64,000 bases of DNA from Elusimicrobiota bacterium (GCA_046153645.1 JBJXGI010000042.1:17280-81279), one strand, 5' to 3'; positions 4,836 through 63,495 are shown, numbered from the stretch's first letter. Notes: generated by a model not told the origin, from the sequence alone. Numbers and translations are program-made.

Positions 4836-5279
4836 TCAAATACCAAACAATAAAATAAAACCAAATAAAGAAAGCATCCAATAATCTAAAGGGAAACCCA
4901 AAAACCAACGCTTATGCCACCATACATTTTCCCGATTAAACTTTTTCCAACCATAATGTGGATTAAGAACAAACCATAAAAAATCCTCGGACACCCAAAA
5001 CAAATCATAAGCTCCAATCACGTTCAGTTCTTGCCTAACACTCCAATACCCATTCCAAACAAAAGGGAGATGGAACATTCCAAAAACAAAAGTAAATGCC
5101 CACACATGGTATCCTGTTAAAGGTCGCCCTCCGTATAACCAATCTAACAACGGATGTTTTTCAACTCTCCAAGTTGGCAAATTTGCGGCCCATCCATCTT
5201 TCCCTTCAATTTCAATTTCCATTTTTGCCCAAACAAATGAAGCGAAAAATATAAACAAAATATATGAAATAGTAGTCAT
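4836..5279 (-). CDS. Hypothetical Trp/aromatic-rich small membrane protein
   Basis: The 147-aa product has N- and C-terminal TM helices and very high W/F/Y content. Its start overlaps the stop of the upstream glycosyltransferase gene by 4 nt (translational coupling). I did not recognise a family. Confidence 0.45.
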   Translation of the reverse strand: MTTISYILFIFFASFVWAKMEIEIEGKDGWAANLPTWRVEKHPLLDWLYGGRPLTGYHVWAFTFVFGMFHLPFVWNGYWSVRQELNVIGAYDLFWVSEDFLWFVLNPHYGWKKFNRENVWWHKRWFLGFPLDYWMLSLFGFILLFGI

Positions 5280-6415
5280 TTAATTTTAATTCCTTTTTGA
5301 ATATGACTTACAACGCTTTTGGCAATTTCAAAAGCGGCTTGAGGTCGTGATAGTTTAAGCGCCTGTTCTTTATAATGAGCTAGCGTATCAGGAGAGGTCA
5401 GCAGCTTTTTTATTTCATTAACCATATCCTCTATATTAAAAACGGAAAGCCCCGCATGGTTTAATTGAATATATTCAACATTCTTTTCTTCTTGACCCGG
5501 AATAGCCGATATCATAAGGATCATAGCGCCTTTACTCAAACTTTCTGAAAGAGTCAACCCCCCTGGCTTGGTCACAACAATATCAGCAACTGTTAAAAGC
5601 TCATCCATATTATTGACAAAACCCAAACTGATTAATTTTGAAGGCGCTGGGATTTTTAGTTGGTCAATTTTCTTTTTCATCACAACATTTTTTCCCGAGA
5701 CAGTAATAATTTGAATGGGAATTTTTAAATTAATGACTTGCCGCACCATCTGTTCAAGTGAAATGAAACCTTCTCCTCCTGAGAGAAGAAGAAGGACGGG
5801 GATGTTTTCTTTCATCTCTAGTTGATGGAAAATATCACTCTTAACAACTTGCTTTAAAAACTGTTGCGAAATCGGGATTCCCGTGACAGATATTCGCGCA
5901 GGTTCAACTCCCAAATTCAACAATTTCCCCACAATCCCAGGCTGAGCAACAAAATACCTATCTACGATAGGATGTACCCAACTTGGATGTAAATCGAAGT
6001 CAGTAATAACTGTTTGAATCGAAATACCTAAAATAGAATGAGCCTTTTTAATAGAAAGAATTTGGGGGATAAAAAAGTGTGTGCTTAAAACCAAATCGGG
6101 CTTGTAGTTATCTATAAAATGAAAAAAACGAGCGGAGTTCCACTGTTGAATAGCACGAATGAACTTAGAGTTTTTCCCCTTAAGATTTCTTTTCTCAGTA
6201 ACTTCATAAATTTTCCCCCAAAAACGGGGGACATTTTTGACAATTAATGAATATCCCGCTTCATACGCTTTTCGAAAAGAAGGGGTCACATAATCCATTG
6301 CATTGACATGTTTGACCTCAACTTTGGGATAAAATTTTATAAATGCCTCTTGAATGGCTTCCGCGGCTTTAACATGCCCAGCGCCAGTGGACACAGAGGT
6401 TAAAAGCACTCTCAT
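5276..6415 (-). CDS. MGDG-synthase-like / UgtP-like diacylglycerol glycosyltransferase (GT28 family)
   Basis: The N-terminus MRVLLTSVSTGAGHVKAAEAIQEAF resembles the MGDG_synth domain. The C-terminal half is a GT28 Rossmann-like domain (…TKPGGLTLSESL…). Confidence 0.65.
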   Translation of the reverse strand: MRVLLTSVSTGAGHVKAAEAIQEAFIKFYPKVEVKHVNAMDYVTPSFRKAYEAGYSLIVKNVPRFWGKIYEVTEKRNLKGKNSKFIRAIQQWNSARFFHFIDNYKPDLVLSTHFFIPQILSIKKAHSILGISIQTVITDFDLHPSWVHPIVDRYFVAQPGIVGKLLNLGVEPARISVTGIPISQQFLKQVVKSDIFHQLEMKENIPVLLLLSGGEGFISLEQMVRQVINLKIPIQIITVSGKNVVMKKKIDQLKIPAPSKLISLGFVNNMDELLTVADIVVTKPGGLTLSESLSKGAMILMISAIPGQEEKNVEYIQLNHAGLSVFNIEDMVNEIKKLLTSPDTLAHYKEQALKLSRPQAAFEIAKSVVSHIQKGIKIK

Positions 6416-54148: not shown

Positions 54149-55798
54149 TTATTGATAAACCCATATTTTTTCTGAAGAGCTTTTCAACTTAAACACCAAG
54201 AGGTCCTCTTTTTCAAATATTTTTTCATAACTGGGACTTTGTTCTAATTCACCAATAGACTGGGTTAATTCTTTCAACGTATAAGGAATCGAGTTCCCTT
54301 TTCGATCACAAACAATATATTCCGGGTTGGCCAGATGTTTGATTTGTAACACCCCCATATGATCTCCCACAGGAAATATTTGGACAAAACGGCGAGAATC
54401 AAAATGAGGGAGTAAATTTTGTTGCCCCGCTAGTGAAGCATCGAATGGAATTATTTTTTTTATTTCTTCAAAAGCCAAAATTTTATTTTTATGTGTAAAA
54501 CGGGAAAATTTTGGAGAGCAGTAAACTCCAATAGCCGCAGTAATAAATATCGCCCCTAAACATATTTGACGTTTATTAATAAACCATGGTTTTTGGTTTA
54601 ATTTCATAAATCCAAAAACAGCGCCAACAAATAAAAAAGCTTGCGAAGGCAAGGCGTAAATATCAGCTAAATTGAGTTGAGTTTGAGCTTGTGAAAGAAT
54701 ATGTGGGGCCAAACTTAAAATAACGGGAATAAGAAATAAAGGAGAAAGAAGTGGCAACCCCAATACGGGGAAAATGTAACACAACGACGTAAAATATTTT
54801 TGAGGGTAATAACATAACGCCTGAAATAGGGCACCTGGATTAAAAAACATATTAATAATGATCTCTCGAGTTGTTTTACCAAAAATGGGGTAACGTTCTG
54901 CCATTAATGAAGTTTCTCCCGTTTGAATAAACGTGGGAATAAAAAATTTAAATTGATATATAAAAATTCCCAGCGCGCACAATATTAAACAAAAGCCGAC
55001 CTTTTTCCAGCCTTTTTGAAAAACGAGAAAAATACCAAAACCAGTTAAAACAATTGAAACATCTTCCTTGGCGAAAAGCGCAAATAGCGCAAATAAAAAA
55101 GTGGCCACCTTTTTTCCAGATATCCAAGCCAACAATGCCAAAAAAAGCATCGGGATTTGCCATGAATCAGGATGAAAGTCATTTTGAATATTGTGCGCAA
55201 TGTAAGGTGAAGACGCATAAAGTAAAAACCCAATTAATGAATAGGAAAAAGAACCTGTTAGTTTTTTTATAATTAATCCCAATACCGGAATTCCACTGGC
55301 AATAAATAAAGCCTGAAAAACCAAAAGCACTTCTGCCCCAGGATAAAATTTATAGAAAAAAGAAATGGGCCATAAAATCCAATTGGTATGAATGGCCATA
55401 AAACATTGCTCTAAAAGAGAAGAGTAAAACCAATGCCCATAGGCTGTATTGAAACAAATATTGGAAAAAAACCCCAAATCCAGCGCGTGTGTTTGCAAAG
55501 AGGTGTGAGCGTAAAGTTTATAACTAACAACACCAGAAACATAACAACACCACAGAAGAAAAAACAAAATGACCTGCCTCTGTAAACTTAATTGGTCTAA
55601 ATATTGTCTCAATTGAGAAAAGAAAGTTATCCCGTTTTTAAAAAAAATAACCCATAAACCCACAAGGGCTAGAATAATAATAATGAATGTTTTAAGTGAA
55701 CGAATCGAAAGAGGACTACCGAAAAATTCCGTTTGAATAGAAAAGTGCCAAGGAAAAAGGGCGTTGAAAATACCCAGAAAAATAATAACGAAAATCAT
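54149..55798 (-). CDS. Large polytopic membrane protein (possibly DUF2079 / GT-C-like)
   Basis: The track ORF runs to 55933, but its first 45 codons overlap the tRNA-Ser gene (GFESPPLR is the tRNA translated). The first ATG after the tRNA (55796-55798) gives a 549-aa protein with at least 12 TM helices. Confidence 0.5.
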
Positions 55799-55874
55799 CA
55801 AATAAAAATATTTTTTCAATTGAGAACGCTTCCAGTTTAAATATTGAATTGGGTATAGACCAAGAAATTTGGAA

Positions 55875-55965
55875 CGGAGGGGGGGGGATTCGAACCCCCG
55901 ATATAGCTTTTCAACCATATAGCGGTTTAGCAAACCGCCGCACTAGGCCACTATGCGACCCCTCC
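55875..55965 (-). tRNA. tRNA-Ser (anticodon GCU), class II with long variable arm
   Basis: Minus-strand sequence GGAGGGG-TC-GCAT…GTGC-G-GCGGT-TTGCTAA-ACCGC-(variable arm ATATGG…CTATAT)-C-GGGGG-TTCGAAT-CCCCC-CCCCTCC-G. It has a 7-bp acceptor, a 5-bp anticodon stem, anticodon GCT, and a T-loop TTCGAAT. CCA is not encoded. Confidence 0.8.
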
Positions 55966-56019
55966 AAAAGAAATCATTATAAACTATTTTCTTAAGCTAT
56001 GATAAAAAGAGATTATTCT

Positions 56020-56313
56020 TCAGTCTCTTAATCCTTCTTGCATATAATCAACCACGAGATTAATGATTTGTTTAACGGTCTGACTACAAGATTTGAAAGA
56101 TATCCGTTCAAGAACTTCAAAACCATAATTTCGAAAAATATCACTGATAAGCGCGTGAATAAAAGACTGGGTTGCAGTGTCTACCTTATCGAAATCAAGG
56201 ACAACATCTTCATTTTTGTTAAGAGCAGGAACAATATCATTTAAGCGAATATTTCTTGCCACATCTTTGTTTTCGGCGAAGGCACCCGCCTTATCAAAAA
56301 TGGAAATGTTCAT
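56020..56313 (-). CDS. Small STAS-like (DUF4325-type) protein
   Basis: A 97-aa product. Its size and pattern (…VVLDFDKVDTATQSFIHALISDIF…) resemble the STAS-like DUF4325 family, by recall. It overlaps the upstream ATPase gene by 4 nt. Confidence 0.5.
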   Translation of the reverse strand: MNISIFDKAGAFAENKDVARNIRLNDIVPALNKNEDVVLDFDKVDTATQSFIHALISDIFRNYGFEVLERISFKSCSQTVKQIINLVVDYMQEGLRD

Positions 56314-57269
56314 ATAAATTTGGGTTTATGAAAACGTGCTTCTTTACGTTCACGTATCGCAGTGCTGTAGGTTTTTCGGATCGCTTCTAAAAGAAGTGAA
56401 AATTCTGCTGTCTGATCAAGCGTCATATCAATTCCAACAAGGGTGCCAAACCAATGAGGCATGTTTTCTCCTATTGAATGTCGATCTTTAAACGGATCGG
56501 CGTGCAACGAAGATCTCTTACTTGTTTTTTTAAGCAATTTATAAAAACCGCTCCCACTATAGACGACAAAATAATCTCTGTTCACATGGGCTATAGATTT
56601 AATAAAAAAAAGACCCGCTCCTGCATTTTGTTCGGTCCCGCCTTCATTTTTTGTTTTTCCTGTGATTCCCGGCATTAACGCCATACGAATCCCATCTATA
56701 TCCGTTTTGGCCAAATGGGACTGATTGATTGAAGCTTTGATTCCCATTCCAGTGTCCGCAATTCCAATTCGAATCACATTACTCTTTGGATAATATTGGG
56801 CACAAAGAAGAGCTCCATATAGAGATTCTGAATGTTCAAGCACATTTCTCACCAATTCACTGACTATATAACCGATTGTTTTGGCCTGCTCAGCTTCCAC
56901 ATGGAGAAGTGGAATCATTTCAGTAATAAACTTGCTTAATTCTTCGGAGGTTTTAATTTGAGTAAGTGGAATAAATCGTCCGGCTGGTTCATGTTCAGTG
57001 ATGCGAATATCCGTTGGAACATTTAAAATTTTAAACAGTCCCATCCGAACCAAGTAATGTTTTGAACGCGCTTCTAATTTTTCACAATGGAAATTTTCCG
57101 GTTTAATGGTCATGCCAAGCGCCGCAATCATAGAGAGCACAAAAGGGTGAACGGAAATCCATTTACTATTGGCCGTCATTTCTAATATTTCAGGTGTTGA
57201 TGGATCAAAGCTTCGCAAAAAAGGATCTATATTTCCTAAAAACGCACTATTGGGTAAGTGTATTCTCAT
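56310..57269 (-). CDS. GHKL/HATPase_c-type ATPase (RsbW/SpoIIAB anti-sigma-kinase-like) with uncharacterised N-terminal domain
   Basis: Bergerat-fold motifs appear in order: N-box ELVRNVLEHS, G1 IADTGMGI, G2 NAGAGLFF. The preferred start is the ATG at 57267-57269 (MRIHLP…). The track start is an upstream TTG at 57338, whose extra 23 codons are encoded by promoter/operator-like DNA. Confidence 0.6.
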   Translation of the reverse strand: MRIHLPNSAFLGNIDPFLRSFDPSTPEILEMTANSKWISVHPFVLSMIAALGMTIKPENFHCEKLEARSKHYLVRMGLFKILNVPTDIRITEHEPAGRFIPLTQIKTSEELSKFITEMIPLLHVEAEQAKTIGYIVSELVRNVLEHSESLYGALLCAQYYPKSNVIRIGIADTGMGIKASINQSHLAKTDIDGIRMALMPGITGKTKNEGGTEQNAGAGLFFIKSIAHVNRDYFVVYSGSGFYKLLKKTSKRSSLHADPFKDRHSIGENMPHWFGTLVGIDMTLDQTAEFSLLLEAIRKTYSTAIRERKEARFHKPKFI

Positions 57270-57275
57270 ATCAGA

Positions 57276-57326
57276 ATTATACCGGGAATCCCGGTATTTT
57301 GTCAATATTCCGGGATTCCCGGTATA
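57276..57326 (-). promoter_or_regulatory. Consensus sigma70-type promoter with two GC-rich palindromic operator sites (putative leaderless transcript of the GHKL-STAS dyad)
   Basis: Minus strand: TTGACA (57305-57300), an 18-nt spacer, TATAAT (57281-57276), then 6 nt, then ATG. Site A, TACCGGGA(T)TCCCGGTA, fills the spacer and overlaps the -10. Site B, the reverse-orientation copy ATACCGGGAATCCCGGAATA, abuts the -35 upstream. The half-site is CCGGGA. Confidence 0.5.
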
Positions 57327-57358
57327 TTGACCCTCCAAACTTCACTGAGTGTTGTGAG

Positions 57359-58282
57359 TTATTGAGGACTTAAATATTGAGAAGGAATAACTTCTCTGGA
57401 ATCCATTGAAATAGGCCGCCATAACAACTGAACTCTAGAGGGGCCACCATAATTCACGAAATCTATTCGAATGGGAAATTTTCCTTGTTTAAAATCGTTT
57501 AAACTAACCACAATGGGTTCACGCCAATTAAAATTATTATCAACAATCAGTTTATCATCAATCCAAACTTTAATTCCATCGTCTGCCACGCCAATAATCT
57601 CATATTTTCCTGAAGACGGAAACGTAATCCACCCCTTCCACCGAGCAGAAAAAATACTTAAGTCGCCGAAGTTTTCAATAGGATAGGCATTTCCCCAATT
57701 GAAATCAACAGCTAAATCTTTCCGGGAATAAATTAAATCTTTGAACTCACTCCCTCTAAAGTACTCGCATATAAGGCCGCGTTTTTCATTTAATTTATTT
57801 TGCCTTATCTGCCATATTCCAATTCCTATAAATAATACGAAAGCAAACAAAGAAATAAATTTCCAATAAGGATAAACAAAACGATAAAAACCATTTTTAA
57901 TAAAAGATAAAAACCGGTAATAAATTGAAAGCTGTGGGTAAACGCTATAAATACTTTTCTCAATGAGATCTTCCGCTTTTTTAAGCATCTTTAAAAAAAT
58001 ATCGACCTGTTCAACATGAGCATTTTCATCATGCCCATTATTGGCCAGAGAATAACTTTCAATTTGATTTAAAATGGTCATTTCTGATAAAAACTTTTCA
58101 CTCTGAGGAAGGTGTTTAGCAAGATCTTTCATTGAATTTAAAATAAATGGCTTGGAAAATTCAATCAAATCAAAATTCTCTGAATCAATCAGATTTTTTA
58201 TCCCTTCGATATTGGATTTAAGTTTGTTAAATTTCTTAGAAATTTCTTCAATACTCATTTTTCTCTCCATTCGATAACCCAA
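57359..58282 (-). CDS. Membrane-anchored PA14-domain protein (cytoplasmic N-domain, 1 TM, periplasmic PA14), paralog 1
   Basis: The TM helix is FISLFAFVLFIGIGIW. The C-terminus is PA14-like (…FSARWKGWITFPSSGKYEIIGVADDGIKVWIDDKLIVDNNFNW…RVQLLW). The track start is TTG; ATG alternatives lie 4 or 8 codons downstream. Confidence 0.6.
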   Translation of the reverse strand: MGYRMERKMSIEEISKKFNKLKSNIEGIKNLIDSENFDLIEFSKPFILNSMKDLAKHLPQSEKFLSEMTILNQIESYSLANNGHDENAHVEQVDIFLKMLKKAEDLIEKSIYSVYPQLSIYYRFLSFIKNGFYRFVYPYWKFISLFAFVLFIGIGIWQIRQNKLNEKRGLICEYFRGSEFKDLIYSRKDLAVDFNWGNAYPIENFGDLSIFSARWKGWITFPSSGKYEIIGVADDGIKVWIDDKLIVDNNFNWREPIVVSLNDFKQGKFPIRIDFVNYGGPSRVQLLWRPISMDSREVIPSQYLSPQ

Positions 58283-58319
58283 AGTAAATATTCATAGATT
58301 GTATTAAATATTATTTCAA

Positions 58320-59576
58320 CTAGGCCTTTATTAAATCCAGCATAAATTTAATTTGTGACGCACTACCAACAATCATTAAAAGTATGATTGATATCAATAA
58401 AAAATTCTTTTTTTCTCTAAAAAAACTCTGTATTGCTTGCGCGTATAACAAAGCCCATCCTAACCATAACCAAGAAAGGTATCGAAAATCCATAGAACAA
58501 GAATAAGGGCTCCGAGCAAGATAAAAATAAGTAATGGGCACCACACCAACTAAAACTATTCCAAATAATTGGGTTGTTTTATTTAAGTTAATTTTAGAAA
58601 CACTCATCAGGCACACCAAAAATCTAACAACAAAAACAACCCAGGCCGTGTTTATTAAGAAAAAGGGATAATCGTGTTGGCCAAAAAGAGAACTGGAAAA
58701 ACGATACAAAAAGTAATTTGTACATTTTGAATAATAACCGACAAAATTGAGCGCATATGGATTATCAAATTGGCCACCAATGAGACCAGGAATTGAAAAA
58801 ATGACTTTAAATGGAGATTCTTGGAGCCTTAATTCACCTCCTAAAATATCCCAATTAACAGGGAATAATTTACCCGTATAATAATAGTTGTGACCAATAA
58901 TCCAGGGGAGAAATAGGGTCGTGGCACTGCCTAAGATAAAAAAATAAGAAAACGCGGTGTTCCAAGGAATCTTCTTTAAAACAGCTGACACTAAAACAAT
59001 TGAGCTCGAAATCATCATACACATAACAATATTTGATTTGGTATAGAGAGCCGCGGTTGTAACAAGGCCCAGCAAAACCAAAATGACTTTCTTTTTAGAA
59101 TGAGAAAAATAAATATAACTTAAAAAGAAAAATAACATGCTTAATAATGAAAAAAGTGAATCGTTATTATAAGTAGTAAACATATACAGAAAAGCGGGTG
59201 CCGTCGAAATAAACAATAAAACCACCATTGCTATCCAAACCTTTATTTTTATAAGCCTCAAAAATAAAATAATAATAATCAAACAAAGAAGCCCGTAGAC
59301 AACAGAAAGTTTTCGAATATTTTCTACATGATGACCCCATTTTTTAATAACAAAGCTGTTGATTAAATAATAAAGCGGTGGATGATAGGTTTGCCAGGCT
59401 TCATCAGGAGAGGGCAGTCTATCTTGATAGGCAATAATGTTTGTGTATTCTACGTGCCCTTCAAAATCATACGTTCTTGCATCATCAGGAGAATATCGGA
59501 TATACATCAAGGCAAAAAGGACCCAAAAAACAAGAAATAAACCAAGTAAAAAAAAATTAGAAATTTTTTTGGTCAA
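58320..59576 (-). CDS. GT-C superfamily polytopic glycosyltransferase (ArnT/PMT-like)
   Basis: The first extracytoplasmic loop after TM1 has acidic motifs (SPDDARTYDFEGH) and …TYHPPLYYLI…, which resembles the KPPL.YW motif of ArnT/GT83. It has about 10 TM helices and overlaps the UGM gene by 4 nt. Confidence 0.5.
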   Translation of the reverse strand: MTKKISNFFLLGLFLVFWVLFALMYIRYSPDDARTYDFEGHVEYTNIIAYQDRLPSPDEAWQTYHPPLYYLINSFVIKKWGHHVENIRKLSVVYGLLCLIIIILFLRLIKIKVWIAMVVLLFISTAPAFLYMFTTYNNDSLFSLLSMLFFFLSYIYFSHSKKKVILVLLGLVTTAALYTKSNIVMCMMISSSIVLVSAVLKKIPWNTAFSYFFILGSATTLFLPWIIGHNYYYTGKLFPVNWDILGGELRLQESPFKVIFSIPGLIGGQFDNPYALNFVGYYSKCTNYFLYRFSSSLFGQHDYPFFLINTAWVVFVVRFLVCLMSVSKINLNKTTQLFGIVLVGVVPITYFYLARSPYSCSMDFRYLSWLWLGWALLYAQAIQSFFREKKNFLLISIILLMIVGSASQIKFMLDLIKA

Positions 59577-61087
59577 GTTTTAGGCCTAATTGATTTTGGA
59601 ACATCTCTTAAACCAGACGACTGATTAGAATTCTGTTCAGCTTCTTCTATATATTCCGCGTCTTGATTGACATTCCAAGGGTCAAAAGAGTCAGACCCGG
59701 AAATAATATTTTGGACAGTGAGCATGGCTGTCATCATGGCATGATCTTGATTATTATATTTATGCATCCCATTTCTTCCTACGAAATGTAAATGGGGATA
59801 ATCACTATCAACTGTTTTTCGAATTAAATCAACACAATCCTTATAAACATCGTCATAAACGGGGTAGGCTTTGGGTTGTCTGATAACGAATCCATCTTTA
59901 ATGTCAGCTTCATGGGCTAATCCTAATTTTACCAACTCTTGTTGCGCTAATTTAACCAGGTCTTTATCAGGCATTTCCCATAAACCGTCACCTTTAAAGC
60001 AAAAATATTCTAACGAATAACACGTCATGTTAGGATCAGGCACCATTTCCGGTGACCACGACTTAAAATTCTGAATTCTGCCCACCTGAACACTAGAATC
60101 GTGAATATAAATCCATTGATCTGGGAGGTTCACTTTATCTTTCAAAATAACGCCGACACAAATAAAATCGCGGTAATGTAATTTACTAGCAGCGCTCATA
60201 ACGTCTTTATTGGGAACAGGTGAGAGCGCATGAATAACTTCACCCAAAGGAGCGGATGAAATAACGTGCTCCGCATTTATTTCTTTAACATCTTGTTCTT
60301 TAGTAATCCTCACTGTCCATAAAGAATTAGTTTTATCGAATTGAAAATGTGACGCTTTATAACCCATATAAACCAGGCCGCCCATCTTTTGAATCTTTTC
60401 AGAACACACGTCCCACATCATCCCCGGGCCTTTTCGAGGATAACGAAACTCGTCTATAAGAGTTTTAATTTTTGTTTTCGATTTTTTAAAAGGGGATAAA
60501 GTTCTAAACGAATTTATTATGGCGCTGCCCAACGACAATTTCCCAATCCGTTGAGCGGCCCAATCAGCGGAAATATCTTTACACTTCATTCCCCACACTT
60601 TTTCCGTATAAGTTTTGAAGAATATCTGAAAAAGTCTTTTACCAAATTGATTACTCACCCAATCTTCTAGATTGGTTGCATTTTTTACGGGAAACAATTG
60701 CGCCCATAAAAAAGATGAGATACATAACATGGTTTCAATGGGGCCCAAATTAAAAAAAGCTTCAAAGGGACGCAACGGGTAGGAGTAAAACTTCCCTTTA
60801 TAAAAAATACGAGAAACTCTTTTACGAACAATAAGGTCTTTCTCTAAAAGCTCCGTCCACAAATCTTCCACCGCTTTGGATTTAGAATAAAACCGGTGCC
60901 CGCCAATATCACTGTAATACCCTTTATAATCAATTGTTTTAGAAATACCACCGACGTATTTTTCATCGGTTTCTACCACAATTACGAGTTTTCCTTGTTT
61001 TGCCAATAAATAAGCTGCGGTAAGGCCGGCAGGGCCGGCTCCAATAACGACCACTGATGTTTTTAAATTATTGTTGTTTTCCACCAA
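59573..61087 (-). CDS. UDP-galactopyranose mutase-like flavoenzyme, long (eukaryote-type) form
   Basis: It has an FAD Rossmann motif (VVIGAGPAGLTAAY…VETDEKYVGG…DIGGHRF). Internal (…FFKTYTEKVWGM…) and C-terminal (…FVGRNGMHKYNNQDHAMMTAMLTVQNIISG) motifs parallel Glf/UGM, especially the 500-aa fungal/kinetoplastid type. Confidence 0.6.
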   Translation of the reverse strand: MVENNNNLKTSVVVIGAGPAGLTAAYLLAKQGKLVIVVETDEKYVGGISKTIDYKGYYSDIGGHRFYSKSKAVEDLWTELLEKDLIVRKRVSRIFYKGKFYSYPLRPFEAFFNLGPIETMLCISSFLWAQLFPVKNATNLEDWVSNQFGKRLFQIFFKTYTEKVWGMKCKDISADWAAQRIGKLSLGSAIINSFRTLSPFKKSKTKIKTLIDEFRYPRKGPGMMWDVCSEKIQKMGGLVYMGYKASHFQFDKTNSLWTVRITKEQDVKEINAEHVISSAPLGEVIHALSPVPNKDVMSAASKLHYRDFICVGVILKDKVNLPDQWIYIHDSSVQVGRIQNFKSWSPEMVPDPNMTCYSLEYFCFKGDGLWEMPDKDLVKLAQQELVKLGLAHEADIKDGFVIRQPKAYPVYDDVYKDCVDLIRKTVDSDYPHLHFVGRNGMHKYNNQDHAMMTAMLTVQNIISGSDSFDPWNVNQDAEYIEEAEQNSNQSSGLRDVPKSIRPKT

Positions 61088-61161
61088 TAAGCTCCAAATC
61101 TACAGACCTTTAAATTTTTAATATATACTTGTGCACACAAACCCTTAACCTTTAATAGCAA

Positions 61162-62073
61162 ATGGAAGAAACTAATAATCTCATAAAAAAAGCGACTCTG
61201 GTTCTAGATTCCGCTTTTGCAATGCTACATCAAGATCCATCGACAGCAAAACTACTTATTTTTAGAACTATCATAATATTAAAAAGAACCTACGAGGGGA
61301 TAAGAATTGGAACAAATGATGATCAGCAATATGAAATCCCAAACACATCAATTATCTATGAAGACTATGTACAAGAATTATTTAAAACTTCCCTTATAGA
61401 TTTAGAAAAAATTTCCATTTCAGACAGCACACTGAAGATAACGTTAATTCAAACTAAAGATGAGCTAGAAAAACTCAAAAAAGAATTGGGTTTAAATTCT
61501 TTAAAAAAATATAAAAATAAAATACTAAAAATTTTTCTTAGTAATTTTTTTCTGAAAAAAATATTACCAACATTAGTTTTTTCTTTCACTTCTTTATTTG
61601 TTATAAAAATAGTTTATCATCACGTCATTGATAAAAAACATGGACTAACTACAGAATATTTCTCGGACCATAATTTATTATCACGAACGTTCGTAAACCA
61701 CAATCGGGAAATCGATTTTGACTGGGGATATTCTGGTCCTCTGCCTAATGGTCAAGCAGATTTTTTCTCAATTAGATGGGAAAGTTATTTATTCGTCCCA
61801 GAAGACAATGAATATAGTTTTATAACACTGTCCGATGACGGGGTTCGGCTTTGGATTAATGATTTTTTACTTATTGATGACTGGATAAATCATCCTCCTA
61901 TTTATAATGAAAATAAAATACGCCTCCCAAAGGGATTCCATAAATTTAAGCTAGAATATTATGAGTATGATCTTACAGCAGGTGTAAGAGTCTTTTGGAG
62001 ACCGCTAACGAGTAAAAAGAAAGAAATTATCAAACAAAAATTCTTCTATCTCGAAAATCCTATCAAAGGTTAA
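61162..62073 (+). CDS. Membrane-anchored PA14-domain protein, paralog 2
   Basis: Same architecture as 57359-58282. The post-TM region (…EYFSDHNLLSRTFVNHNREIDFDWGY…FFSIRWESYLFVPEDNEYSFITLSDDGVRLWINDFLLIDDW…VRVFWRP) is clearly homologous to paralog 1. Confidence 0.6.
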   Translation: MEETNNLIKKATLVLDSAFAMLHQDPSTAKLLIFRTIIILKRTYEGIRIGTNDDQQYEIPNTSIIYEDYVQELFKTSLIDLEKISISDSTLKITLIQTKDELEKLKKELGLNSLKKYKNKILKIFLSNFFLKKILPTLVFSFTSLFVIKIVYHHVIDKKHGLTTEYFSDHNLLSRTFVNHNREIDFDWGYSGPLPNGQADFFSIRWESYLFVPEDNEYSFITLSDDGVRLWINDFLLIDDWINHPPIYNENKIRLPKGFHKFKLEYYEYDLTAGVRVFWRPLTSKKKEIIKQKFFYLENPIKG

Positions 62074-62187
62074 ACTTCAATCAATCACCTACAACGCATT
62101 AAATTTCAGATTTCTTACCTCCACAAGTCATTATTACAGTTATTTCCCATCAGTTTTATCACGATTGGAGCCATTCTTAGTTTAGCA

Positions 62188-63495
62188 ATGCCAGCTGGTA
62201 CCAACTTTGTTTGGGATGAAAATGGTCATTGGTCTACGGCCGTGGCTCAGATGAAAAGTTTTCTTAGTGGAATATCTTACCCCGCTGAGTTTTCCTCGAT
62301 TTATGGCAATTTAGTTGCTTATCCTGGCTTTGTTCTAAGCCACCTGGTTATTTGGTTAATCCAACTCATGGATATATCTGTTCCTATCTATGGGACATTT
62401 CATCTATATCTAGCACGACTTCTTTCAGGTTTTGGTATTGCAATTTGCCTACATCGGTTTTGTACTTTAGCAGAAAGTGACCATCAACCAACCTGGGGAA
62501 TTGTAAGTATTCTCAGTCTATTTCTATCACCTTTATTCCTACAACGCTCGTTTGGCTTAAGCACCGATATTATGACTCACGCGCTGTCTATATTAGCTGT
62601 ATCTGTTATTTTTTTTTGGGACCGACTTAATTTTTTTGATGTATTTCTATTTTTTTTCTTTGGATTTGGAACTGCATTAGCGAAACCAAATGTGTTATTA
62701 CTCTTTTTGAGCGTTTTGGTTTATTGTCATTTCATTTATAAGCAGGAAGAAATTATATCGACCCATAAACTATTTTTTTTCAATCTAACAAAAGCTCAGC
62801 TTTTTTTCTGGGCAGGAACTCTCATTTTTTTATTATTAGGTATTCAACATAGTATTTATTTTTTTTCGCATCAAAACAATGTCGCTGTTATTGCTGTAAA
62901 ACCGAATATTTCATCTGCCAGACAAATCGATTTTATTCTTAGAGAACCCTTATTTACTCTGAATATTTTTTGGAGGGAATTTATTGAAAATTTCTCAACC
63001 CACTATTTTTGGGGGCAGTCAATAGAAAAAAAATACCCTGCTGTATATTCATTATTTGCAGTAAATCTATGGCAATCAATTTTCACAACTGCCATGATCT
63101 TTGAATTTAGTATGATTTTTTTTCACATTTCTTTACGAAAAATATATTTCAATTTTCACAATATATTTATAGGACTGCTTTTTCCTTTTGTTGGTATTGT
63201 TCTTTATGCTCTTAGCATAATGTTAACAGCTTATGTGGGCTGGACACCTGTGGGATATCATTTTGTAACGGGGATTCAGTTCCGATATTTTATTCCCATT
63301 TTTATTATTGGGCTCAGTGTCTTATTTCATTCCTTATCTAAATTGACAAAAAATCCAAATTCTTTGGGAGAAGAAATCTATAATGCATCAATTTCAAACC
63401 ATTTAATCTCACTAACAATCAAAGGATTTTGTTTTGTAATTTTGGTTTGTTATGGTCTTTTCTTTTATTTAGGCGTTATTGGTAAACCCGTTTGA
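62188..63495 (+). CDS. Polytopic membrane protein, candidate GT-C-like glycosyltransferase (N-terminus probably extends upstream)
   Basis: It has at least 10 TM helices and an acidic motif FVWDENGHW right after the track ATG. The in-frame upstream 38 codons encode a basic + hydrophobic segment (…KFQISYLHKSLLQLFPISFITIGAILSLA) that would form TM1 before the DE loop. No ATG/GTG/TTG is available there. Confidence 0.45.
   Translation: MPAGTNFVWDENGHWSTAVAQMKSFLSGISYPAEFSSIYGNLVAYPGFVLSHLVIWLIQLMDISVPIYGTFHLYLARLLSGFGIAICLHRFCTLAESDHQPTWGIVSILSLFLSPLFLQRSFGLSTDIMTHALSILAVSVIFFWDRLNFFDVFLFFFFGFGTALAKPNVLLLFLSVLVYCHFIYKQEEIISTHKLFFFNLTKAQLFFWAGTLIFLLLGIQHSIYFFSHQNNVAVIAVKPNISSARQIDFILREPLFTLNIFWREFIENFSTHYFWGQSIEKKYPAVYSLFAVNLWQSIFTTAMIFEFSMIFFHISLRKIYFNFHNIFIGLLFPFVGIVLYALSIMLTAYVGWTPVGYHFVTGIQFRYFIPIFIIGLSVLFHSLSKLTKNPNSLGEEIYNASISNHLISLTIKGFCFVILVCYGLFFYLGVIGKPV

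Follow-up and report, generated by a model that had tools for sequence, protein, structure and literature searches.

We analyzed a 64,000-nt stretch of DNA (the window) from a 180,946-bp contig in the metagenome-assembled genome of an uncultured Elusimicrobiota bacterium, concentrating on two genes, PA14-A and PA14-B, whose products are bitopic membrane proteins with one PA14 domain each; all the evidence described here is computational. Both proteins carry the name 'PA14 domain-containing protein' in the NCBI annotation. The original prediction held that the two genes face away from each other, and this is the case, as they occupy 57359-58282 (-) and 61162-62073 (+) on two divergent arms (Table 1). 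The left arm, on the minus strand, is made up of a gene for a flavin adenine dinucleotide (FAD)-dependent oxidoreductase, a gene for a polytopic membrane protein resembling glycosyltransferases of the C fold (GT-C-A) and PA14-A, in this order, whereas the right arm, on the plus strand, has PA14-B in front of a second polytopic protein gene, GT-C-B. No promoter was established in the spacer between the arms.

The mechanical open reading frame (ORF) of PA14-A reaches a TTG codon at 58282; the ATG at 58258, which is preceded by GGAGAG, is the likely start and gives the same 299 aa as the NCBI annotation. GT-C-A overlaps the upstream oxidoreductase gene by 4 bp at its start. The gaps between the members of each pair are 37-61 bp for GT-C-A/PA14-A and 24-114 bp for PA14-B/GT-C-B, with a terminator predicted in neither, and from these short gaps and the lack of a predicted terminator it is plausible that each PA14 gene is co-transcribed with its GT-C gene. 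The glycan region to which both arms belong has a low G+C content (0.34 vs 0.376) and extends past the end of the window; the genes upstream of 54 kb are housekeeping genes.

Table 1. Positions of the genes and features discussed in the text
Feature	Position	Strand	Description
PA14-A	57359..58258	-	bitopic PA14 protein, 299 aa from ATG 58258; NCBI P0001
PA14-A N-domain, residues 1-127	57878..58258	-	up-down four-helix bundle and helix running into the transmembrane helix
PA14-A transmembrane helix, residues 133-151	57806..57862	-	KFISLFAFVLFIGIGIWQI; hydropathy scan
PA14-A PA14 domain	57392..57784	-	Pfam and alignment to RsgI3 modules
GT-C-A	58320..59576	-	418 aa, ~8-9 transmembrane helices, GT-C-like; NCBI name 'hypothetical protein'
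PRK07208-family FAD-dependent oxidoreductase	59573..61087	-	first gene of the left arm; NCBIfam PRK07208.1-1
Divergent intergenic spacer	61088..61161		74 bp, between the arms
PA14-B	61162..62073	+	bitopic, 303 aa; identical to NCBI P0005
PA14-B N-domain, residues 1-133		+	
PA14-B transmembrane helix, residues 134-152	61561-61617	+	
PA14-B PA14 domain, residues 158-291	61633-62034	+	
Open codons in frame with PA14-B and GT-C-B	62074..62187	+	38 codons; basic tail and hydrophobic helix LLQLFPISFITIGAILSLA
GT-C-B	62188..63495	+	DUF2142 polytopic protein, 435 aa from annotated ATG; NCBI MFN0117419.1 'DUF2142 domain-containing protein'
DUF2079 polytopic membrane protein	54149..55873	-	Pfam DUF2079, 190.4 bits; G+C content 0.341

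Two membrane-anchored PA14 proteins

The PA14 domain expected in both proteins was found by its Pfam profile (PF07691, 147 positions, cut-off 24 bits), which matches PA14-A with 65.5 bits over positions 2-142 and PA14-B with 83.6 bits over positions 1-145. Both proteins also give weak GLEYA matches. Each has a single hydrophobic helix, and the PA14 domain begins 8-9 residues after it. From the hydrophobic segment through the C-terminus the two proteins are homologous, as predicted (BLASTP, 26% identity over 179 aa, E = 1e-23), and no alignment was obtained between their N-terminal ~130 residues, in agreement with the divergence noted earlier for this part. The original prediction further regarded the two proteins as paralogs; a close paralogy is not supported, since the metagenomic protein P0012 is closer to PA14-B (39% identity) than PA14-A is (26%).

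Metagenome loci with further proteins of this layout were gathered by similarity to PA14-B and by a scan for the pattern of a transmembrane helix followed by PA14. Two word-indexed searches and a profile search yielded one same-layout protein only, P0012 (locus L001). The pattern scan added two tandem copies in locus L084, one copy in L087, a version with a short N-domain in L143 and a large anchored PA14 protein in L140. The positive-inside rule favors a cytoplasmic N-terminus for six of seven anchors and is ambiguous for PA14-A. We infer the architecture that had been proposed for both proteins, namely a cytoplasmic N-domain, one transmembrane helix and an extracytoplasmic PA14 domain. The tether that connects the helix to the PA14 domain measures 2-12 residues across all seven anchors, so that the lectin would be positioned at the membrane surface, which is the site of GT-C active sites. 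A second transmembrane segment flanking an extracytoplasmic loop, as in a Wzz/WpsH-like co-polymerase, was not found in either window protein, each having one hydrophobic segment and a C-terminal PA14 domain.

The closest solved PA14 by sequence is the pectin-binding PA14 dyad of the anti-sigma-I factor RsgI3 (6qe7, E = 6e-40, with its two modules at 73 and 70 bits), followed by RsgI4 (6qdi, E = 2e-28) and then by the anthrax protective antigen. Alignment with the RsgI3 modules revealed that the DcisD motif is retained in PA14-A (VADDGIKVW) and in PA14-B (LSDDGVRLW), and its 'DDG' is retained in all same-layout relatives as well. In RsgI3-PA14A, Flo5 and Epa1 this motif is the binding site for Ca2+ and sugar, and it is lost from the non-binding RsgI3-PA14B module (PMC6852018), which has ANGG at the place of DDG in the window proteins, 'NG' replacing 'DDG'. 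The CBL2-equivalent loop is NYGGP in PA14-A and EYDLT in PA14-B, its first residue thus being polar in both (N and E, respectively). The stabilizing Tyr is present in PA14-B and replaced by Phe in PA14-A. To judge from these residues, the sugar site of both PA14 domains is plausibly intact, and both domains are predicted to bind sugar.

The N-domains gave few clues, and that of PA14-A matched no known family. An exhaustive phmmer search with PA14-B against 1.84 billion representatives produced 17,928 matches, of which the 150 listed comprise the query itself and 149 multi-repeat PA14 proteins; there is no PA14-B ortholog among these 150, and none of the 149 non-self matches aligns to PA14-B residues 1-134. 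The PA14-A N-domain was modeled by AlphaFold2 from the single sequence as an up-down four-helix bundle continuing into the transmembrane helix, with a predicted local distance difference test score (pLDDT) of 77.6, and the fold matches of this bundle are non-specific; the single-sequence model of full-length PA14-B was unusable (pLDDT 41). The N-domains of the L084/L087 group show a marginal HEPN match (22.3 bits vs a cut-off of 22), and profile-profile comparison detected no similarity between them and the N-domains of the window proteins or P0012. The assignment of the window N-domains to HEPN (PF05168) was rejected for lack of this profile similarity and because the fold matches are non-specific. 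Overall, no conservation of N-domain sequence was found among PA14-A, PA14-B, P0012 and the L084/L087 group.

Polytopic partners and recurrence of the gene pair

GT-C-B matches Pfam DUF2142 with 37.5 bits (cut-off 30.1), over profile positions 123-393 only. We take DUF2142 to be a member of Pfam clan CL0111. Proteins of this family are described as GT-C-fold proteins acting outside the membrane on C55-P-linked donors (PMC9574508, PMC12599335). The matches of GT-C-A are weaker: 22.8 bits to PMT_2, which is below the cut-off of 26.1, 17 bits to DUF2142, and a weak NCBIfam match to the LA_3751/3752 putative glycosyltransferase. Its first transmembrane helix (TM1, residues 8-26) is followed by the acidic motif PDDARTYDFEGH (PDD...DFEGH loop), and when GT-C-A is compared in an alignment to 39 polytopic neighbors of PRK07208 genes, D32 is the one column without variation. 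A sequence search of the PDB gave no relative for either protein. The expectation that each PA14 gene stands beside a GT-C-like protein is borne out above the family cut-off on the right arm; on the left arm the PMT_2 match stays sub-threshold.

The two polytopic proteins have no significant similarity to each other, the arms do not share one gene order, and no inverted repeat connects them at the DNA level. These observations speak against the duplicated, mirror-image module of a PA14 anchor and a GT-C protein that the original prediction had proposed; a recent inverted duplication was likewise rejected, given the unrelated GT-C partners and the lack of an inverted DNA repeat between the arms.

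The annotated GT-C-B begins at MPAGTNFVWDENGHW, which lacks TM1 and resembles a first extracytoplasmic loop. Immediately 5' of the annotated Met, the 38 open codons listed in Table 1 encode a TM1-like helix in the same frame; they contain no ATG, GTG or TTG. An open run of this length would arise by chance with a probability of ~0.06-0.08, and both remaining frames are interrupted by stops. Judged by its coding content, the segment is probably the missing TM1 of GT-C-B, in which case the gene either begins at a rare codon (ATT 62098 or ATC 62080) or has had its start mutated or mis-sequenced. PA14-B and GT-C-B occupy one reading frame with a single TAA between them. The candidate explanation of one TAA-interrupted ORF, resulting from read-through or a sequencing error, was rejected because the acidic motif of the GT-C first loop would become cytoplasmic in such a fusion; an independent TM1 with a cytoplasmic N-terminus fits, since a basic tail and a helix are encoded upstream.

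A non-transporter polytopic protein is encoded within 3 kb of the PA14 gene in six of the eight anchored-PA14 loci (the window, L001, L084, L087, L143 and L140), compared with 2/73 other PA14 loci (Fisher p = 2e-6), and the polytopic neighbors of non-anchored PA14 proteins are MFS, ABC, amino-acid permeases and the like. By the strict criterion of a Pfam-supported GT-C neighbor, the proportions are 2/8 and 0/73 (Fisher p = 0.009). The predicted synteny with polytopic GT-C-like genes was thus seen in the few relatives found. In L140 the neighbor is a PMT_2 protein (40 bits) at a distance of 27 bp, and in L143 the end of the anchor gene and the start of the polytopic gene share one coordinate, 856. 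The L084 neighbor has an EDSYITYRYA loop after TM1 and a faint AftB-type match.

Locus L148 encodes a single 647-aa polypeptide in which PMT_2 (72 bits) is followed by PA14 (77.5 bits), the latter being 45% identical to that of PA14-B. Of all the arguments for a functional link between PA14 and GT-C proteins, this Rosetta-stone fusion is the strongest. In the fusion protein (L148, 795-2735) the PA14 part is rearranged: its C-terminal two-thirds (profile positions 44-143) precede GLIGQYYNDPSFKDLKITRVDSTIDFDWDEGSP, a segment similar to the N-terminus of PA14, so that the domain is either circularly permuted or a tandem that was truncated.

Additional domains and genes were observed at other anchor loci. 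The first tandem anchor in L084 (479-1873) carries an extra C-terminal domain of ~150 aa, which in L087 is encoded apart, by a 128-aa ORF (5042-5425) downstream of a protein with 13 transmembrane helices; this domain forms a second split/fused pair in these clusters. Upstream of P0012, across a 4-bp gap, L001 encodes a 484-aa protein (704-2158) with N-terminal transmembrane helices and without any Pfam or NCBIfam match.

The flavoprotein and other neighboring genes

The first gene of the left arm, previously labeled UDP-galactopyranose mutase (UGM), encodes a member of the PRK07208 family (NCBIfam PRK07208.1-1, 734.6 bits vs a cut-off of 451), and its scores to the UGM models are far below their cut-offs (TIGR00031, 45.9 vs 303.75; Pfam GLF, 17.6 vs 26.3). 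The product is predicted from these matches to be a flavoprotein of the amine-oxidase/UGM-like fold and no bona fide UGM. In 80 loci with PRK07208 genes from other phyla (L002-L081; Verrucomicrobiota, Acidobacteriota, Planctomycetota, Proteobacteria and others), a polytopic protein is encoded within 3 kb in 56, many of these genes being adjacent and often separated by a 4-bp gap or overlap. Most of these polytopic partners have no Pfam family; the matches found all belong to the GT-C clan with the exception of a single GtrA, and among the 39 aligned neighbors five match PMT_2, two GT87 and two PIG-V. Over 40 PRK07208-linked polytopic proteins, an Asp located after TM1 is invariant. A PA14 gene is present in 0/80 of these clusters, so that the conserved core consists of the flavoprotein/GT-C pair, to which the PA14 anchors are additions, rare and specific to a lineage. 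A literature search on PRK07208 returned nothing relevant to the flavoenzyme/GT-C pair.

Downstream of PA14-A lie a HATPase_c_2-like gene and a STAS-like DUF4325 gene (56020-57338, minus strand), with a G+C content of 0.384 vs 0.336 in the flanking glycan genes. Their products match positions 32-248 and 320-390 of the PADLOC model for DrmA of DISARM, i.e. its N-terminal part. A perfect TTGACA-18-TATAAT consensus (sigma-70) with palindromes is found at 57276-57326, ending 6 nt before an internal ATG at 57269, and two copies of a ACCGGGAATCCCGG-type palindrome flank and interrupt this consensus. The arrangement suggests that the pair has an operator-controlled, possibly leaderless transcript of its own. 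The pair is absent from the other anchor loci and looks like a unit independent of PA14-A.

The DUF2079 protein is the third polytopic membrane protein within the low-GC glycan region, and its family presumably belongs to the GT-C clan. The mechanical DUF2079 ORF begins at TTG 55933, inside a tRNA-Ser(GCT) gene at 55874-55966 (-), so that the real start must be further downstream. Since the tRNA gene sits between the DUF2079 gene and the HATPase/STAS pair, it may mark an insertion point.

Proposed role and its alternatives

Our preferred reading, held tentatively and at somewhat less than even confidence, is that PA14-A and PA14-B are trans-acting, membrane-tethered carbohydrate-binding subunits for the neighboring GT-C enzymes. 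We take the host, as a member of Elusimicrobiota, to be diderm, and a SurA-like gene is present in the window. The two proteins would then be bitopic lectins of the inner membrane, with a Ca2+-dependent PA14 domain held against the periplasmic face of the membrane by the short tether. Each would act in trans as the carbohydrate-binding module (CBM) of the adjacent minimal GT-C, i.e. PMT_2-like GT-C-A or DUF2142 protein GT-C-B. By binding a lipid-linked or nascent envelope glycan, the PA14 domain would hold it at the GT-C active site and might in this way set acceptor choice, processivity or chain length, and the difference in CBL2 could give PA14-A and PA14-B distinct glycan specificities. The proposal builds on the observed domain content, architecture, motif conservation, neighborhood recurrence and one fusion; to these it adds a physical or functional coupling of the PA14 proteins to the GT-C proteins, which we infer. 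It is favored by the conserved DcisD motif, by the short tether, by the precedents for CBMs on GT-C enzymes and by WpsI with its bitopic partner. Among the roles that the original prediction offered, substrate binding or presentation has the best support, from the recurrence of the neighborhood and the L148 fusion, and the RsgI3 hallmarks of signaling are absent.

Acceptor-binding CBMs are common on GT-C enzymes whose acceptors are polymers. Those with a fused CBM that binds the acceptor glycan include AftD (10.1101/2019.12.22.885152), as well as EmbC and GT136 ORF12 (PMC11127046). In mycobacterial EmbC and AftD and in Citrobacter GT136 ORF12, as proposed here, a periplasmic, Ca2+-binding β-sandwich CBM is tied to a polytopic GT-C and binds the acceptor polysaccharide, and the L148 fusion has exactly their CBM-fused layout. 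However, the CBM of the window would be a separate polypeptide with its own membrane anchor and a cytoplasmic domain, and it is a PA14 domain, whereas the CBMs of these enzymes are not described as PA14 (10.1101/2019.12.22.885152, PMC11127046); moreover, the GT-C proteins of the window are small (418 and ~435-473 aa), neither having a large periplasmic domain. The WpsI/WpsH system of the lactococcal cell-wall polysaccharide also combines an extracellularly acting DUF2142 GT-C with a small, mostly extracytoplasmic anchored partner, for which control of polymer length was proposed (PMC9574508, PMC12599335). This likeness is by description only, as WpsH has a predicted N-terminal transmembrane segment or signal peptide and a C-terminal transmembrane segment around a Wzz-like extracellular loop and no PA14, in contrast to the one helix, cytoplasmic N-domain and C-terminal PA14 domain of the window proteins. 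The fungal PA14/GLEYA adhesins Flo5 and Epa1 share the PA14 fold and bind sugar directly through a DcisD-N calcium site (PMC6852018), but they are secreted cell-wall adhesins with long stalks, with neither a membrane anchor nor a link to glycosyltransferases.

Several observations weigh against a CBM acting in trans. The polytopic partners are mutually unrelated, and those in L001, L084, L087 and L143 are unassigned to any family, so that support for a GT-C identity is confined to the DUF2142 protein of the window, L140 and the L148 fusion. GT-C-B itself may be 5'-damaged. The sample of loci is small and was chosen by similarity to PA14-B. A single clade of the anchors' PA14 domains is weakly supported by bootstrap; a well-supported 'anchor' clade, which one neighbor-joining tree had suggested, was given up for this reason. 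By its PA14 domain, PA14-A is closest to genuine RsgI sensors and does not group with the other anchors. In GT136 ORF12 the fused CBM is dispensable in vivo (PMC11127046), and the 0/80 PRK07208/GT-C clusters with a PA14 gene imply that such GT-C proteins work without PA14. Finally, the proposal leaves a cytoplasmic domain of ~130 aa, unconserved even among the anchors, without a role; as a guess, the bundle could serve in dimerization or in docking to cytoplasmic enzymes of the pathway.

The sensor relatives of PA14-A point to a different function. RsgI proteins are sensors composed of a cytoplasmic domain, a transmembrane helix and an extracytoplasmic CBM (PMC6852018, PMC10328401), and this layout provides a real model for the idea of transmembrane signaling. 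On such a reading, which we consider unlikely, PA14-A and PA14-B are RsgI-like glycan sensors, with PA14 binding a periplasmic or envelope polysaccharide and the helical bundle holding or releasing a regulator. One candidate regulator is a sigma factor from another part of the genome; for PA14-A, another is the HATPase/STAS-like pair, whose genes follow PA14-A on the same strand after ~20 bp. The gross layout is indeed that of RsgI3 (Clostridium thermocellum, 6qe7) and RsgI4 (C. clariflavum, 6qdi), the former being the closest solved structure; the DcisD Ca2+/sugar motif and the polar first residue of CBL2 are conserved between them and the window proteins (PMC6852018), and the cytoplasmic domain has the considerable size that signal transduction calls for. 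The true RsgI proteins nearest to PA14-A in the PA14 tree come from two loci (L112, 983-2929, and L116, 2-2681) with genuine sigI-rsgI-type modules and PA14 dyads, the second PA14 module of which is nearest to the PA14-A domain.

These two loci also served as controls, and the hallmarks of RsgI that they display are missing from the window. In the N-domain and transmembrane segments of PA14-A, PA14-B and P0012 no match to RsgI_N (PF12791) was obtained at E <= 10, and in those of the window proteins none to RsgI_M (PF23750) at the same threshold, compared with 42 and 83.9 bits in L112. RsgI_M, a periplasmic domain with an Asn-Pro autocleavage site between the transmembrane helix and the sensor, defines RsgI (PMC10328401), and a PA14 domain starting 8-9 residues past the helix leaves no room for it. 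A sigma-factor gene neither adjoins the two PA14 genes nor occurs among the genes scanned at 40974-63962, whereas a Sigma70_r2 protein is encoded directly upstream in L116. The window proteins thus lack RsgI_N, RsgI_M with its Asn-Pro site, the Pro/Thr linker and an adjacent sigI (PMC10328401). They have one PA14 module instead of the RsgI3 dyad, an N-domain of ~130 aa forming a four-helix bundle instead of ~50 aa, GT-C-like neighbors instead of a sigma factor, and a host from Elusimicrobiota, not Firmicutes. By these features, the PA14 module is common to the window proteins and RsgI, and the proteins themselves do not belong to RsgI. Several further points count against a sensor: the lack of conservation of the N-domains from PA14-A to the L084/L087 group is a poor fit with a conserved binding partner, the fold matches of the bundle are non-specific, and the HATPase/STAS pair differs in G+C content, has its own promoter and is missing at other anchor loci. 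In addition, a lectin a few residues off the membrane would be unable to reach a distant polysaccharide as RsgI does.

Equally doubtful is a role of the two proteins as stand-alone tethered lectins, independent of the GT-C enzymes, with either the end product of the cluster or a polysaccharide of exogenous origin as their ligand. They might retain or organize an envelope glycopolymer at the inner membrane, and their co-location with GT-C genes might then reflect a shared glycan or shared regulation. An intact PA14 domain with its DcisD motif would suit this function, PA14 is widely used as a lectin or adhesin module (the 17,928 PA14-bearing representatives that match PA14-B have varied architectures), and the differing, mostly unassigned families of the polytopic partners are what a loose partnership would produce. 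However, the PMT_2-PA14 fusion points to a direct functional link, as does the shared end/start coordinate in L143, and the very short tether suits action at the membrane surface rather than reach into the envelope.

As an extension of the trans-acting subunit, a separate PA14 lectin could represent an accessory class for minimal GT-C proteins, in which the bundle would couple the periplasmic glycan to the cytoplasmic part of the pathway, for example to the synthesis or flipping of lipid-linked donors, thereby making a two-sided 'glycan clamp'; we regard this as a speculation with rather little in its favor. Least probable of all is the absence of any functional link, with two PA14 membrane proteins, unrelated to each other, placed by coincidence in a variable, low-GC surface-glycan island: the 26% identity of PA14-A and PA14-B, the separate position of PA14-A among the anchors, the 0/80 related oxidoreductase/GT-C clusters with PA14 and the low G+C content typical of mosaic glycan loci would all fit, but both genes fall in a span of less than 5 kb and have a GT-C-like gene next to them, and the pairing recurs in independent metagenome contigs and in one fusion.

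A literature search for PA14 together with GT-C, PMT_2 or ArnT found no linking paper. The components of the proposed system are all of known kinds; its novelty is CBM-assisted GT-C catalysis in a split, membrane-tethered form. Since the evidence is computational and comes from a few uncultured genomes, its practical impact is at present modest. For most bacterial envelope glycans, the selection of a polymeric acceptor by the GT-C enzyme and the control of chain length are open questions, and the known examples depend on fused CBMs. The RsgI-type PA14 sensor module is found here outside Firmicutes and in a quite different context, and four unassigned polytopic families turned up beside anchored PA14 proteins. 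If the trans-acting role is true, the combination of a short N-domain, a transmembrane helix and PA14 beside a polytopic gene would provide a genomic marker for unassigned GT-C-like enzymes. Acceptor specificity would then be swappable through a small partner gene, which would help to explain the mosaic nature of glycan loci and could be used in glycoengineering.

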